Shown here piece after piece: positions 901 through 7,434 of a stretch of DNA of 64,000 nucleotides. This stretch comes from Escherichia phage RB32. A program made the translations under genes and the position numbers. The DNA lies in sequence record NC_008515.1; one strand, 5' to 3'. The notes below the pieces were generated by a model. The model did not search any database. It saw only the letters and a program-made list of their open reading frames with translations, and had not been told where the DNA came from. Each line of letters opens with the position of its first letter. Positions within the stretch are counted from its first letter, which is position 1.

Positions 901-1494
901 TTATTTCAGAGAATTAATATATTCCTGAACATCGGCAGAGGTAGTTTCAACCCCAGAAATATTGCCATTAAAGGTTTCAACTCGAGCAAGAGTATCTTCA
1001 ATATCAACCTTAGTCAGTGCTGCAATTTCAACTACATCATCGGCAGTACTAATTCCAAGTGCATTCGCTGCTCGAGTTTCACGGATATATTCCAATTTAA
1101 CTGCAAGTTCTTGGCGAGCATCATCCAATTCAACTACTTTCTTGGCGATTTCAATTCGCATTTCAGCATACCCATCAGCTTTAGTAGTTAACTGTTCAGC
1201 TGTTCGACGATATAGCAAGCCGAGTTTAGCATGCATTGTTACATCTTGACCTTCGGAAAGAAGCTTGCGAATTTCACGCTCTTTTGATTCGGCCTGCTTA
1301 TTCTTTTCGACAATAAGTTCACGAATACGCTTTTCTTCATTAATAGATTTAACAGAAGCAGTTTTTAGATCTTTAATTTTATCAAGCAATTTTGCTGCTG
1401 CGGCAGTATACTGCTCTTCAACAGATAGATTTTTAGCCATAGCAGAACCAAGTTTAGTGCGAATAAACTCAACAATTTTCTTCAGTGTGTTCAT
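901..1494 (-). CDS. Coiled-coil protein, 197 aa; possible PspA/IM30-like fold (tentative)
   Basis: Charged heptad-like sequence throughout; segments resemble E. coli PspA in spacing ([14 protein letters not shown] vs KLSETRARQQAL) by eye only. Confidence 0.6.
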
Positions 1495-1537
1495 AGTATT
1501 TCCTTAGGTTGATTAGAAATTAAAATCTGCAGAAGAA

Positions 1538-2071
1538 TTATATCATGCTACTTAAGAGATGTAAACTATTTTTAATTTTACAAATTCGTTCAGCTTCTTC
1601 AACAGCGGCAGTGATAATGCTTTTAGCTATAGGAGTACTAATATTAGTAGCTTTTACACTTAACACGATTTCTTTATCTTTACCAGGCCAACCCCACGAT
1701 TTTTCACCATGAGTGCCTTTAATTACAGCAGACACCTCAAGTGAGCATCCATTATCGCATGTTTTTACATTAACAACCCAAGTGTCACTTTTCTCAACCG
1801 GTTTATCCCAGTAAATATTAAGAATACGTGGGACATCAAATTTAGCAGGGCAAATCTTAACCGTAAGACCTTCGCTTTCTAGCCAATTAATAAGAGGGCG
1901 TTCATACATGCGGCGATGTGGGCTTTGAACTCGACAAGCTTTGTACCCATTGCTTGCGGCTTCACTAAGCTCTTCTAATACATGCTTTTGCATTATTGAT
2001 AAGATACCATCAAAAGATTTTTCGGAAGTTTCATTCAGTTCGGTATAAAGAGACATAACAGTTTTCCTCAA
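1538..2071 (-). CDS. Hypothetical protein, 177 aa, several Cys residues
   Basis: ORF track; no recognised motif. Confidence 0.6.
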   Translation of the reverse strand: MRKTVMSLYTELNETSEKSFDGILSIMQKHVLEELSEAASNGYKACRVQSPHRRMYERPLINWLESEGLTVKICPAKFDVPRILNIYWDKPVEKSDTWVVNVKTCDNGCSLEVSAVIKGTHGEKSWGWPGKDKEIVLSVKATNISTPIAKSIITAAVEEAERICKIKNSLHLLSSMI

Positions 2072-2112
2072 ATTATAGGCTCATAATATCTCAATCATGA
2101 GCCTATGTAAAC

Positions 2113-2388
2113 TTATTTCATATTATTGAAATATTCTTCTGCGATTTCGTCGTTATCATGGTAAACTTTAGAAGACAGTTTAACATAACCTTCAGCAGTG
2201 AACATGTTAATCACAACCTTTACAGTATACCACTGACCATCTTCATTACCCATTACTGCGTAAGTTTCAAACATCGGATGATCAGGACCGATAACTTTAA
2301 TATCATTCACTGTACGACCGAAATCTTCTGAAACACATTTCATAAAGAAGTTGAACAGTTCGCCGTAATTATCCATTTCATTCTCCAA
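2113..2388 (-). CDS. Hypothetical small acidic protein, 91 aa
   Basis: ORF track; preceded by an early-promoter-like module (GTTTACA ... TGGTACTAT) and SD-like GGAGAATGAAATG. Confidence 0.6.
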   Translation of the reverse strand: MENEMDNYGELFNFFMKCVSEDFGRTVNDIKVIGPDHPMFETYAVMGNEDGQWYTVKVVINMFTAEGYVKLSSKVYHDNDEIAEEYFNNMK

Positions 2389-2394
2389 ATTGTT

Positions 2395-2455
2395 TTCTGT
2401 ATCAGTAGTTGATAGTTGTATAGTACCATGGAAGAACAGGGATGTAAACAGTTTT
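2395..2455 (-). promoter_or_regulatory. T4 early-type promoter module (-35 GTTTACA, extended -10 TGGTACTAT) upstream of 2113..2388; related to the repeated modules at 6324-7434
   Basis: Reverse complement reads GTTTACATCCCTGTTCTTCCATGGTACTATAC; shares CAGTAGTTGATAG and TGTAAACA..TTTGTGAAA blocks with the other copies. Confidence 0.4.
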
Positions 2456-2587
2456 GTGAAAAAATTTTTAAAAAGTTTTATGGAATTCTAGGGTCAGGAG
2501 GGACAATTAAAAGGTAGGATAATATATTATAAAGGGTATAAACTAAATGATGCCTAGAGAGACAAGGAAAGGCCTAGATACCAAAAA

Positions 2588-2610
2588 GCCCCAACCTTTC
2601 GGCTGGGGCT
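2588..2610 (-). terminator. Intrinsic terminator downstream of the IP-like gene 2618..3091
   Basis: Minus strand reads AGCCCCAGCCGAAAGGTTGGGGCT followed by TTTTT. Confidence 0.6.
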
Positions 2611-2617
2611 AAGAATG

Positions 2618-3091
2618 TTATTTGATTTGTTTAGCAGACCAAATGCGGTCTTTAATAATTTTTTGGATGTCTTCAACATACTCAAGAGAGTGAGCATGTG
2701 GGTTATCTTTGAAACTATAAGCACGAGCTAACTTTTGACCTTCAGTTTTGATTACTAAAAGCTCTTTAAGGATAGCTTCATATCTGGAGATAATTCCTTT
2801 AACGATATTTTTCTCTTGTGTGACTTTAGGATCTGCTTTAGGAGCAGGTTTACCTGAAGCCTTTGCAAAAGCAGCTCCAGTAGCAACTAAACTTTTCCAA
2901 GCCATACTAACTGCATTCCCTGTAAATCCTTCGGCTTTCATATCACGAGCAAATTGGAATCGTGATTCATCGGAAGCATCTTTATAGGAATATTTACCCG
3001 CGGCAATGGCTGCTTTTGCGACAGCTTGAATTTCGGTGCTAGATGCTTCATTTAACACCGCTTCATTTAAAAATTGAGCATATGATTTCAT
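2618..3091 (-). CDS. Internal-protein-like protein with capsid targeting sequence (MKSYAQFLNEA), 157 aa
   Basis: N-terminus matches the T4 IP capsid-targeting/gp21 cleavage pattern (LNE|A); late promoter upstream; flanked by near-identical hairpins. Confidence 0.65.
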   Translation of the reverse strand: MKSYAQFLNEAVLNEASSTEIQAVAKAAIAAGKYSYKDASDESRFQFARDMKAEGFTGNAVSMAWKSLVATGAAFAKASGKPAPKADPKVTQEKNIVKGIISRYEAILKELLVIKTEGQKLARAYSFKDNPHAHSLEYVEDIQKIIKDRIWSAKQIK

Positions 3092-3127
3092 CTTATTTCC
3101 TGTTTTAATTCGGGGTTTTAATATACT

Positions 3128-3135
3128 TATTTATA
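3128..3135 (-). promoter_or_regulatory. T4 late promoter TATAAATA (minus strand) upstream of IP-like gene
   Basis: Plus strand TATTTATA; about 37 nt upstream of the ATG at 3091. Confidence 0.5.
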
Positions 3136-3141
3136 CTAAAA

Positions 3142-3165
3142 AGCCCCAACCTTTCGGTCGGGGCT
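3142..3165 (-). terminator. Intrinsic terminator at the end of the tRNA/stable-RNA transcription unit
   Basis: Minus strand AGCCCCGACCGAAAGGTTGGGGCT + TTTTT; near-identical to hairpin at 2588-2610. Confidence 0.6.
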
Positions 3166-3214
3166 AAGCCTTGCGGCAACCTTGTCGGGGTTCCACCTGC
3201 TAAGGCAAGTGTTT

Positions 3215-3481: not shown

Positions 3482-3558
<77 letters not shown>

Positions 3559-3561
3559 TAA

Positions 3562-4227
3562 TTAAAATTTCATTTTTCGACCTTTAAACCATCCTTCTGG
3601 AATTGGGTCAGTTTTCTTAATACGTTTAGAAACTTTTTCATCTAATGAATGAATCCACATCATACCAAATTGGGAATTCTTTTCGCCCTGTTGGTGTTTA
3701 TTTCTGGCGTGAGATTCTTTCATTTTATTAATAGTTTCAGGAGTATGATGCTTATTTAAAAATCTGCTATTATTTAAAAATTTTTCCCTGTATTCAGGAG
3801 TTGACCACAAGCGTTTAAATACATTTGAACCATGTTTACGATATTTTTCTTGAAGTAAAATATCATTTTTAAAACGTGACTTAAACGATTTAGCTCCTTT
3901 TAAACTAGCGTCTTTCTTCTGGTTTAGCATCCTAGGAATATTTATATGGTCCCATCCACCTTCACCACCAAGTTTTAAATTATACACATCTGGTCTATTT
4001 AAAAACTCTTCTGTGACAATATTTTTCTCGGCTTCAAGCATAGATTCTTTATCATCAAAATACTCTAATATTTCTTTAGAAAAATTTTCTATACCATATT
4101 TATCTTGGGCTCTTTTTAATAATTTACCAGAACCCATATATCCATCATCTAAATTTTCGGTAGAATGCACACCAATATAAATTTTATTATTAATTTTATT
4201 TGTTATTTTATAAGTGTAATGGAACAT
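3562..4227 (-). CDS. segB: GIY-YIG homing endonuclease SegB, 221 aa
   Basis: N-terminal YKITNKINNKIYIGVHS GIY-YIG motif; sits inside the tRNA cluster as in T4; same length as T4 SegB. Confidence 0.85.
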   Translation of the reverse strand: MFHYTYKITNKINNKIYIGVHSTENLDDGYMGSGKLLKRAQDKYGIENFSKEILEYFDDKESMLEAEKNIVTEEFLNRPDVYNLKLGGEGGWDHINIPRMLNQKKDASLKGAKSFKSRFKNDILLQEKYRKHGSNVFKRLWSTPEYREKFLNNSRFLNKHHTPETINKMKESHARNKHQQGEKNSQFGMMWIHSLDEKVSKRIKKTDPIPEGWFKGRKMKF

Positions 4228-4268
4228 AAATATCTCCTATTTCTAAGAGTATTTATGTTCCCAAAATA

Positions 4269-4340
4269 TGGCCCTGGGTGGAATTGAACCACCATCTGGC
4301 GATTATGAGTCGCTTGCTTGAACCTTCCAGCTACAGGGCC
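4269..4340 (-). tRNA. tRNA with anticodon CAT (T4 tRNA-Ile-like, AUA-reading after modification, or Met); no encoded CCA
   Basis: Acceptor GGCCCTG/CAGGGCC, anticodon loop CTCATAA, T-arm GGTGG TTCAATT CCACC. Confidence 0.75.
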
Positions 4341-4341
4341 T

Positions 4342-4417
4342 TGGTGCTGATTGACGGAATCGAACCGCCGACCTTCTCATTACAAGTGAGTTGCTCTACC
4401 TACTGAGCTAAATCAGC
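4342..4417 (-). tRNA. tRNA-Thr (anticodon TGT), CCA encoded
   Basis: Acceptor GCTGATT/AATCAGC, D-arm GCTCAGTAGGTAGAGC, anticodon loop CTTGTAA, T-loop TTCGATT. Confidence 0.85.
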
Positions 4418-4419
4418 AA

Positions 4420-4506
4420 CGGAGGCGATAGGATTTGAACCTATGAGTCGCCGGAGCGACTGCCGGTTTTCAAGACCGGTGCATTAAACCACTCTGCCAC
4501 GCCTCC
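4420..4506 (-). tRNA. tRNA-Ser (anticodon TGA), long variable arm
   Basis: Acceptor GGAGGCG/CGCCTCC, anticodon stem CCGGT/ACCGG with loop CTTGAAA, long variable arm, T-loop TTCAAAT. Confidence 0.85.
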
Positions 4507-4508
4507 AG

Positions 4509-4582
4509 TCTCCATACAAGGATTTGAACCTTGGACCTCCTGATCCCAAATCAGGCGCTCTACCAAACTGAGCTACACGGAG
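4509..4582 (-). tRNA. tRNA-Pro (anticodon TGG)
   Basis: D-arm GCTCAGTTTGGTAGAGC, anticodon stem CCTGA/TCAGG with loop TTTGGGA, T-arm CAAGG TTCAAAT CCTTG. Confidence 0.8.
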
Positions 4583-4592
4583 TAAATTAAAT

Positions 4593-4666
<74 letters not shown>

Positions 4667-4671
4667 AAATT

Positions 4672-4758
4672 TGGTGCGAGAAGTGGGACTCGAACCCACA
4701 AGGAAATCATTCCGCAGCATTTTAAGTGCTGTGCCTTTACCAATTTGACCATTCTCGC
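4672..4758 (-). tRNA. tRNA-Leu (anticodon TAA), long variable arm, CCA encoded
   Basis: Acceptor GCGAGAA/TTCTCGC, anticodon stem CAGCA/TGCTG with loop CTTAAAA, T-arm GTGGG TTCGAGT CCCAC. Confidence 0.85.
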
Positions 4759-4759
4759 G

Positions 4760-4832
4760 CTGGGAATAAAGGACTCGAACCTTTGCATCTAGCAGTCAAA
4801 GTGCTATGCCTTACCAACTTGGCTAATTCCCA
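4760..4832 (-). tRNA. tRNA-Gln (anticodon TTG)
   Basis: Acceptor TGGGAAT/ATTCCCA, anticodon stem TAGCA/TGCTA with loop CTTTGAC, T-arm AAAGG TTCGAGT CCTTT. Confidence 0.85.
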
Positions 4833-6323: not shown

Positions 6324-6391
6324 TTTATTCTCCTCAGTAGTTGATAGGGTAATAGTATCACTACCCCATCTAAAAGTAAACGGTTTATAAA
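6324..6391 (-). promoter_or_regulatory. Repeated early-promoter module (variant A) with SD, upstream of the 4-gene operon
   Basis: Reverse complement: GTTTACTTTTAGATGGGGTAGTGATACTATTACCCTATCAACTACTGAGGAGAATAAAATG; near-identical copy at 7035-7104. Confidence 0.5.
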
Positions 6392-6700
6392 CTATTTTAT
6401 TCCGCGTGATGCAATTGTGTTCTGCCGTTTAGCACCAGTTTGTTTAAAATCATGATTGTCGATTTGATCGGTACGAGCAACTCCGAATGATGATTTGATT
6501 TTAGCTTTAGATCCTTTAGTTATAGAAATAAACATCTCGGAAGCCCCTTTCTTAAAGTCCGAGGCGATTACTTCAACGCCGTTCTTAGCAAGTGACTTCA
6601 GAATTGCCTCAGCATACTCATCGTCAAGACTCGCCTGAGTATTAATAACGAATGTCTTTGGCGCAGCCGCTTCATTGATAAATTCTTTAAATGTTTTCAT
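6392..6700 (-). CDS. Internal-protein-like protein with capsid targeting sequence (MKTFKEFINEA), 102 aa
   Basis: N-terminal CTS with (I)NE|A cleavage motif; own early promoter; at the T4 ipI locus position. Confidence 0.7.
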   Translation of the reverse strand: MKTFKEFINEAAAPKTFVINTQASLDDEYAEAILKSLAKNGVEVIASDFKKGASEMFISITKGSKAKIKSSFGVARTDQIDNHDFKQTGAKRQNTIASRGIK

Positions 6701-6761
6701 TTTATTTTCCTAATTAATTTTTGATGAGATAATAGTATCACTACCCTATTTAAAAGTAAAC
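6701..6761 (-). promoter_or_regulatory. Repeated early-promoter module (variant B)
   Basis: -35 GTTTAC and TGATACTAT -10 on minus strand; shares AATAGTATCACTACC core; near-identical copy at 7363-7434. Confidence 0.5.
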
Positions 6762-7034
6762 TCATTTTAAATAAATTGCGTATTTTTTATAACCCGCTGA
6801 CTCATGACGAAGACCCTTATCATTAGCAAAACGCTCAATGTTGTTAATTTGATTCTGATCAAGTTCAGAGATGTCAAACACGAAAAAGTTACGTTTGTTA
6901 CCAACTGTTATATAGTCAGTTAAATCAATATCATATAGGTAATTGATGTCAGCAATCAAAGTCTTGACAGCTTTGCTAATTTTTACTTTTTCGTTAAAAG
7001 CAGCTTCAGAAATAAATTCTTGATACGTTTTCAT
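6762..7034 (-). CDS. Internal-protein-like protein with capsid targeting sequence (MKTYQEFISEA), 90 aa
   Basis: N-terminus almost identical to the canonical T4 IP targeting sequence; ISE|A cleavage motif. Confidence 0.7.
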   Translation of the reverse strand: MKTYQEFISEAAFNEKVKISKAVKTLIADINYLYDIDLTDYITVGNKRNFFVFDISELDQNQINNIERFANDKGLRHESAGYKKYAIYLK

Positions 7035-7104
7035 TTTATTCTCCTCAGTAGTTGATAGGGTAATAGTATCACAGCTAAAACCCTATGTAAACAACTTTGT
7101 GAAA
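7035..7104 (-). promoter_or_regulatory. Repeated early-promoter module (variant A copy)
   Basis: CTCCTCAGTAGTTGATAGGGTAATAGTATCAC ... TGTAAACAACTTTGTGAAATTA repeat. Confidence 0.5.
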
Positions 7105-7362
7105 TTACTTTAAATCTTCTAATCGTTTCTTCATCTTAGAACCATTTTTAGCGATTTCTCCTGCATCGGAGCATAATGCTAAAAGCGCTTTAACTTTAGT
7201 TTGGTCTCCTTTAAAAGATGAAGGATCGACTGCAGCAGCAAGTTCTTTAATACGAGAGAAAAGACGCTCAGCTTCAGCTAAAGCCATTCCAAGCTTTACT
7301 TCCATACCGTGGGAAGATTCAGTGATAGTAGTTTTTGTAGCAAACTCTTTGAAAGTTTTCAT
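7105..7362 (-). CDS. Internal-protein-like protein with capsid targeting sequence (MKTFKEFATK...ITE|S), 85 aa
   Basis: CTS-like N-terminus, own early promoter, adjacent to 57B where T4 carries ipI. Confidence 0.65.
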   Translation of the reverse strand: MKTFKEFATKTTITESSHGMEVKLGMALAEAERLFSRIKELAAAVDPSSFKGDQTKVKALLALCSDAGEIAKNGSKMKKRLEDLK

Positions 7363-7434
7363 TTTATTTTCCTAATTAATTTTGATGAGGTAATAGTATC
7401 ACTACCTCATCAGCATGTAAACAACTTTGTGAAA
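7363..7434 (-). promoter_or_regulatory. Repeated early-promoter module (variant B copy)
   Basis: TCCTAATTAATTTTGATGAGGTAATAGTATCACTACC ... TGTAAACAACTTTGTGAAATTA repeat. Confidence 0.5.

Follow-up and report, generated by a model that had tools for sequence, protein, structure and literature searches.

Gene e.8 of phage T4, also recorded as msp1 (GenBank L13089), UniProt P39226, PHROG 2678, Pfam PF26879 and T4p131, is located between the rnaC terminator region and e.7/e.6. T4 literature and databases have recorded the gene and its promoter, as well as its early expression and dispensability, since the 1990s. Here, we examine its counterpart in a 64,000-nucleotide (nt) stretch of Escherichia phage RB32 (NC_008515.1), hereafter the window, where an original prediction made from the sequence alone had proposed that the minus-strand open reading frame (ORF) at 2113..2388 encodes a small acidic protein of 91 amino acids (aa), possibly a DNA mimic or an inhibitor of host nucleases or restriction systems.

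Two other described systems bear on this locus. First, T4 Arn, which is linked to restriction as an inhibitor of McrBC and also inhibits H-NS, is an early, dispensable T4 protein of about 90 aa to which e.8 can be likened by composition, size and timing. Second, T4 early promoters follow an UP/-35/TGn/-10 architecture (PMC2988021), and T4-like phages carry early promoter/stem-loop (PeSL) cassettes (Arbiol 2010; Comeau 2014) whose promoter consensus for the PST/T4 pair is TTTACW-N17-TAYWAT (PMC4122927). The RB32 locus resembles that of T4 in the position of e.8, its promoter, its Shine-Dalgarno sequence and its length. It differs, together with that of RB33, by an extra 157-aa gene with a late promoter between rnaC and the e.8 promoter, and by an unrelated 172-aa gene in the e.7 slot.

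Identity and constraint of e.8

Sequence comparison identifies the ORF at 2113..2388 as the T4 e.8 orthologue. Its product differs from T4 e.8 (NP_049744.1; 98.9% aa identity) at a single position, G63 here versus S in T4, and is 100% identical to e.8 of RB51 and wV7. It matches phrog_2678 ('unknown function') over residues 1-87 of 87 (E=2.6e-56), which was the sole family match in our library scans, while PF26879 is precomputed on all database homologues. The annotations of RB51, wV7, T4, MX01 and Pet-CM3-4 place the gene on the early strand, between the tRNA/stable-RNA cluster and e.6. Positions 1400-3200 of the window match Enterobacteria phage RB33 at 100% DNA identity and other Tequatroviruses at 96-97%, and no e.8 paralogue was found within the window.

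The ORF is real, although not at the length first proposed. The mechanical ORF list opened it at a TTG at 2388 (2113..2388, minus strand, 91 aa), a codon that overlaps the Shine-Dalgarno sequence. Translation almost certainly starts at the ATG at 2376, since GGAG lies 6 nt upstream of it and all annotated orthologues are 87 aa long and begin at the same ATG. A database copy in Escherichia phage vB_EcoM_IME537 is mis-called at 152 aa, from an upstream start that makes it read through the promoter. The gene is thus delimited as follows:

2113..2376, minus strand: e.8 coding sequence, 87 aa plus stop (ATG 2376..2374, TAA 2115..2113)
2386..2383, minus strand: Shine-Dalgarno sequence GGAG of e.8, which precedes the ATG by 6 nt and is conserved in T4 and RB51

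The pattern of substitutions identifies e.8 as a real protein-coding gene under strong purifying selection. Between the window and T4, five differences are synonymous and one is non-synonymous, which corresponds to a ratio of non-synonymous to synonymous rates (dN/dS) of 0.04 (0.042). Comparison with two Dhakavirus copies gives dS of ~1.0, dN of ~0.09-0.11 and dN/dS of 0.08-0.11 (also given as 0.08-0.13), and all 11 changes between two Karamvirus copies are synonymous. There is next to no probability that the frame instead arose by chance or is a decaying remnant that travels with a promoter cassette. Such a view could draw on the dispensability of e.8 and on at least one T4 laboratory derivative (T4583L_131, on a 151.8-kb contig) that carries a frameshifted e.8 of 88 aa, itself consistent with dispensability. 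It conflicts with a dN/dS of 0.04-0.13 at dS of up to ~1.0, with the retention of an 86-87-aa length across three genera, with the compact fold confidently predicted for the protein (see below), and with time-resolved omics of T4 infection, in which e.8 is classed as early for RNA and its protein is detected and likewise classed as early (PMC9697503, supplementary files 4 and 6). Selection and proteomics data together effectively refute it.

By tblastn, e.8 was found in 595 phage records, with ~509 at >=90% identity (Tequatrovirus), 56 at 80-90% (Dhakavirus, e.g., MX01 and AnYang) and 29 below 60% (Karamvirus). The neighboring gene e.6 was found in 1105 records from many more genera, ~500 of them at >=95% and Mosigvirus RB69 at 88%. 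On the basis of these record counts, e.8 is essentially universal in Tequatrovirus yet much narrower in distribution than e.6. Exhaustive phmmer/HMMER searches of 1.84 billion representatives and a three-subfamily profile search revealed no relatives beyond Tequatrovirus, Dhakavirus and Karamvirus. Two extra phmmer matches, a TPR-repeat protein matching 'VLGPDHP' and another repeat protein, were dismissed as summed-repeat artefacts. Scans of e.8 and four neighbors against Pfam-A, NCBIfam and PADLOC returned sub-threshold noise only, and no e.8-like ORF was detected by hidden Markov model in the e-tRNA region of phage Moon.

Early promoter and flanking transcription signals

A strong sigma-70 T4 early promoter, located directly after a terminator, drives e.8 as a separate transcription unit. 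The transcription signals that flank it, including those shared with the next gene, are the following:

2420..2480, minus strand: e.8 early promoter, with an A/T-rich UP-like block (2480..2455), a -35 element (G)TTTACA (2449..2443), TGn (2428..2426) and a -10 element TACTAT (2425..2420)
2582..2610, minus strand: intrinsic terminator AGCCCCAGCCGAAAGGTTGGGGCT (2610..2587) plus T-run, closing the upstream transcription unit
2075..2111, minus strand: PeSL right after the e.8 stop codon, in which TTTACA-17-TATTAT (2111..2083) overlaps a 13-bp hairpin (2106..2075)

With a TTTACA-like hexamer (2448..2443), a 17-nt spacer before TACTAT, TGn, TAnnAT and an A/T-rich tract, the promoter belongs to the UP/-35/TGn/-10 early class of T4. 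It can be aligned base-for-base with its T4 and RB51 counterparts, the core elements are retained in Karamvirus Pet-CM3-4, and the -35 and -10 upstream of msp1 (= e.8) were already annotated in the original 1990s T4 record, L13089. The proposal that e.8 is expressed from a copy of a repeated early promoter was borne out, within a repeat family that was already known. A stricter T4-early pattern occurs at eight minus-strand sites and one plus-strand site in the window, against ~2.1 per strand in shuffled sequences. The e.8 promoter and four sites at 6381-7422, in the internal-protein locus, also have common flanks, namely tttcacaaa..GTTTACA and, after the -10, CTATCAAC(TACTGA), the latter flank also being given as CTATCAACTACTGA.

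The e.8 promoter fits the PeSL promoter consensus and has the flanks of the internal-protein-locus PeSLs, but differs from these cassettes in two respects. First, no stem-loop was found over it, as folding of this region is no better than that of shuffles (z +0.68), whereas other early-promoter regions reach z values of -5.9 (2060-2118), -4.1 (7368-7428) and -2.6 (6327-6387). Second, a separate canonical terminator lies 140 nt upstream. This terminator (2610..2587) is a near-copy of the rnaC terminator (3165..3142) and aligns with the rnaC terminator of T4. The hairpin immediately downstream of e.8 (2106..2075) has a z of -5.9, and 0/200 shuffles fold as well. Compensatory changes maintain its stem in Dhakavirus MX01, and Karamvirus has another stem in its place. 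This PeSL likely serves both as the 3' boundary or stabilizer of the e.8 mRNA and as the promoter of the next gene.

Predicted fold and candidate roles of the e.8 protein

The structure of e.8 was predicted with AlphaFold2 from a five-sequence alignment; the best model reached a pLDDT of 86.6 and a pTM of 0.78, the other four models 52-61. The protein is predicted to form an 87-aa soluble alpha+beta domain with two N-terminal helices, a 4-5-stranded antiparallel meander sheet and a C-terminal helix (H3-14, H17-20, E23-33, E36-45, E48-57, short E65-67 and E71-73, H76-85). Superposition with an independent model from BFVD, for an 85%-identical homologue, gives a TM-score of 0.95, and the elements follow one another in the same order in the lower-confidence model of a Karamvirus homologue (pLDDT 68.7). 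No enzyme signature was found in e.8. When the model was compared with the PDB by Foldseek, no match reached E<0.1, and in a sequence-profile search of the PDB no match had an E-value below 0.4. The Foldseek list repeatedly includes cystatin-derived affimers, monellin and designed curved-sheet proteins, and the modeled fold is a generic helix-on-antiparallel-sheet roll. Cystatin, monellin and NTF2-like rolls, including the anti-CRISPR AcrIIA13 (7jta), score in the generic-topology range with 4-16% sequence identity, and neither the QxVxG motif nor other motifs of the cystatin family were found in e.8. BFVD also yielded weak structural matches among proteins of Moonvirus and Erwinia phages; their orthology to e.8 could not be confirmed, and they were set aside.

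Is e.8 an acidic DNA mimic? With 15 Asp or Glu residues out of 87 (17.2%), seven Lys or Arg, a net charge of -8 and an isoelectric point (pI) of 4.46, e.8 is acidic and ranks 4th in net-charge density among the 79 non-overlapping ORFs of the window. Calling it Asp/Glu-rich was nevertheless a mild overstatement, as its Asp/Glu fraction is only ~1 standard deviation above the window mean (13.6 +/- 3.8%), and much of its charge stems from a low Lys/Arg count. Composition alone is no argument against mimicry, since the values for T4 Arn (92 aa, 17.4% Asp/Glu, seven Lys or Arg, net -9, pI 4.55) are nearly equal. In this scheme, which has precedents in T4 Arn and T7 Ocr, e.8, probably as a dimer, would imitate the phosphate backbone and titrate a protein that binds DNA in the host, for instance H-NS or a restriction enzyme. 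Its size, charge and early timing, nearly identical to those of a proven T4 mimic, its acidity rank and its location in an early, dispensable accessory region are all compatible with such a role. However, e.8 has no sequence similarity to Arn (BLASTP E=19), and the comparison of a predicted fold with known mimics, proposed as a check, turned up no Ocr, ArdA, Arn or Ugi-type protein among the listed structural neighbors of the model. Moreover, the net charge is not conserved. It lies between -7 and -10 in Tequatrovirus and Dhakavirus, as it does in Arn, whereas Karamvirus orthologues have a net charge of +2 and a pI of 8.9, and D25, D46 and E80 are the only invariant acidic positions of the family. 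Thus, although the resemblance to Arn in size, charge and timing holds, we consider charge mimicry unlikely.

Small early proteins of this size often act as sponges. An oligomeric e.8 could sequester an immune second messenger or another metabolite in the manner of Tad1, Tad2 and Acb2, and a pocket could be lined by the conserved polar and aromatic residues N24, D25, K27, Y39, N44, D46, W49, Y72 and H73. Foldseek also gave a very weak match to the 3'cADPR-binding 'Lockin' (9p8l_A, E 1.1, TM 0.37), which points in the same direction but is not significant. No known sponge family is matched by sequence, and the near-universal presence of e.8 in Tequatrovirus does not fit sporadic signaling defense systems, which makes a sponge highly improbable. 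A role internal to the phage, in which e.8 would modulate phage gene expression or RNA metabolism (processing of tRNA, rnaC or rnaD, or early-to-middle switching), is very unlikely as well. Its location beside the stable-RNA genes is of little help, as gene order is conserved throughout these genomes and synteny therefore carries little functional information. In addition, no match of e.8 to a motif or family that binds RNA was obtained, in the window and in RB33 it is set apart from the RNA genes by a late-expressed gene cassette, and T4 transposon data show it to be dispensable in rich medium.

We tentatively favor, at somewhat less than even odds, a model in which e.8 binds a host factor, protein-level counter-defense included. 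Early in infection, the protein would bind a host macromolecule and act through this stoichiometric binding, as a host-takeover or counter-defense effector of the 'small inhibitor' type. Stoichiometric binding appears most plausible because e.8 is a 10-kDa, early, soluble and predicted non-enzymatic domain under strong constraint. Residues conserved in the family cluster in beta1-beta3 (N24, D25, K27, I29, Y39, A40, G43, N44, D46, G47, W49, T51) and in the C-terminal segment (K70-Y72-H73...A79-E80-Y82-F83), and the interface is expected there for this reason; it would consist of the face formed by the beta1-beta3 strands, the GN(E/D)DGxW hairpin and the C-terminal YH-DD-AE-YF-MK segment, rather than operate through DNA-like charge mimicry. 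The near-ubiquity of e.8 among Tequatroviruses, next to a gene slot whose content is freely exchanged, makes a factor conserved widely in enterobacteria a more likely target than a sporadic defense system. A more specific version is possible but doubtful: e.8 could be an inhibitor, so far unrecognized, for counter-defense or host takeover, with a small alpha+beta fold that is new. It would be conserved in all Tequatroviruses, and its phenotype would be masked in standard assays by the DNA modifications of T4 or by redundancy, as for Arn. This version could include Arn-like mimicry on an unrelated scaffold.

Several observations weigh against the host-binder model. The reversal of charge between Tequatrovirus (pI 4.5) and Karamvirus (pI 8.9) could mean either that the targets differ or that function does not reside in the surface. 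Under its gene and protein names, the literature searched contains no partner, phenotype, structure or functional study of e.8. Finally, in transposon data, T4 e.8 is 'Non-essential', with 23/23 TA sites hit, and its insertions are neutral when K-12 REF is compared with delta-rnlA (log2 fold change, log2FC, 0.46; adjusted p 1.0; bioRxiv 10.1101/2025.11.20.689424) and in the comparison with uropathogenic clinical isolates (log2FC 0.17; adjusted p 1.0; HIDEN-SEQ Extended Data Table 6), and no selective advantage of e.8 is seen in these comparisons. In the latter table, significantly depleted T4 genes include nrdC.1, pseT and cef, plus the uncharacterized cd.4 (log2FC -2.93) and vs.1 (-1.20); none belongs to the e.2-e.8 block, all genes of which are neutral, and a deletion of this block was recovered and is viable (PMC9825161). 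The arn gene is likewise neutral in the clinical-isolate comparison (log2FC 0.25), presumably because glucosylated T4 DNA masks such phenotypes. Since arn is neutral in the same data set, the missing phenotype of e.8 is uninformative with regard to DNA mimicry, a point that can be counted in favor of mimicry.

The range of hypotheses is narrowed to a protein without an enzyme signature, unrelated to known mimics and with a charge that is not conserved. As one of the few accessory genes of a hyperplastic region that remain invariant across ~500 Tequatrovirus genomes while their neighbors are shuffled, e.8 is a reasonable candidate for targeted partner-finding. Knowing what it targets would close one of the gaps that remain in the T4 early program.

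Neighboring genes and a hypervariable slot

The two neighbors mentioned in the original prediction indeed have no assigned function. The 202-aa ORF corresponds to T4 e.5, and the Cys-containing ORF, given there as 177 aa, is 172 aa long from its ATG:

1538..2056, minus strand: RB32ORF130c, 172-aa ORF with five Cys (ATG at 2056), in the e.7 slot downstream of e.8

The slot driven by the PeSL that follows e.8 is, from a comparison of its occupants, hypervariable. It holds e.7 in T4, the unrelated 172-aa ORF in the window, and in MX01 the gene MX01_133, which shares only the C-terminal 70 aa with the 172-aa ORF. The latter looks mosaic, since its N- and C-terminal parts match separate PHROGs.

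Just upstream of e.8, the 157-aa ORF RB32ORF132c (2618..3091, minus strand) encodes a basic protein (pI 9.5) that matches phrog_2280 ('unknown'). The gene is absent from T4. In 30 sampled of 510 records, its product is annotated 29 times as 'hypothetical protein' and once as 'gp36'. Its N-terminus, MKSYAQFLNE|AVLNE, follows the pattern of the internal-protein ORFs of the window (MKTYQEFISEA, MKTFKEFINEA), and we take it to fit the T4 capsid-targeting sequence with L/I-x-E protease sites. The sequence TATAAATA at 3135..3128 (minus strand), 37 nt upstream of its ATG and right after the rnaC terminator, corresponds to the T4 late-promoter consensus. This ORF thus probably encodes an unannotated internal protein that is packaged and injected, and hence is a candidate anti-restriction factor; as such, it may be a better candidate than e.8. 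Near-identical intrinsic terminators, AGCCCCAGCCGAAAGGTTGGGGCT (2587..2610, minus strand) and AGCCCCGACCGAAAGGTTGGGGCT (3142..3165, minus strand), flank the gene, while T4 has a single copy after rnaC, which suggests that the 157-aa cassette was inserted by recombination at the terminator. The annotation of RB51 mentions a '34 bp imperfect direct repeat'.

Elsewhere in the window, the polymorphic internal-protein locus consists of a run of near-identical early promoter/stem-loop cassettes, with promoters near 6381, 6761, 7092 and 7422. Two small ORFs, 6392..6700 and 6762..7034 (both minus strand), have canonical internal-protein N-termini (MKTFKEFINEA and MKTYQEFISEA, respectively). The tRNA cluster (3482..4832) comprises eight tRNAs (Arg, Met/Ile-CAU, Thr, Ser, Pro, Gly, Leu, Gln) and, as in T4, contains a full-length segB coding for a GIY-YIG homing endonuclease of 221 aa (3562..4227, minus strand). 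In RB51, segB is truncated and the set of tRNAs differs.
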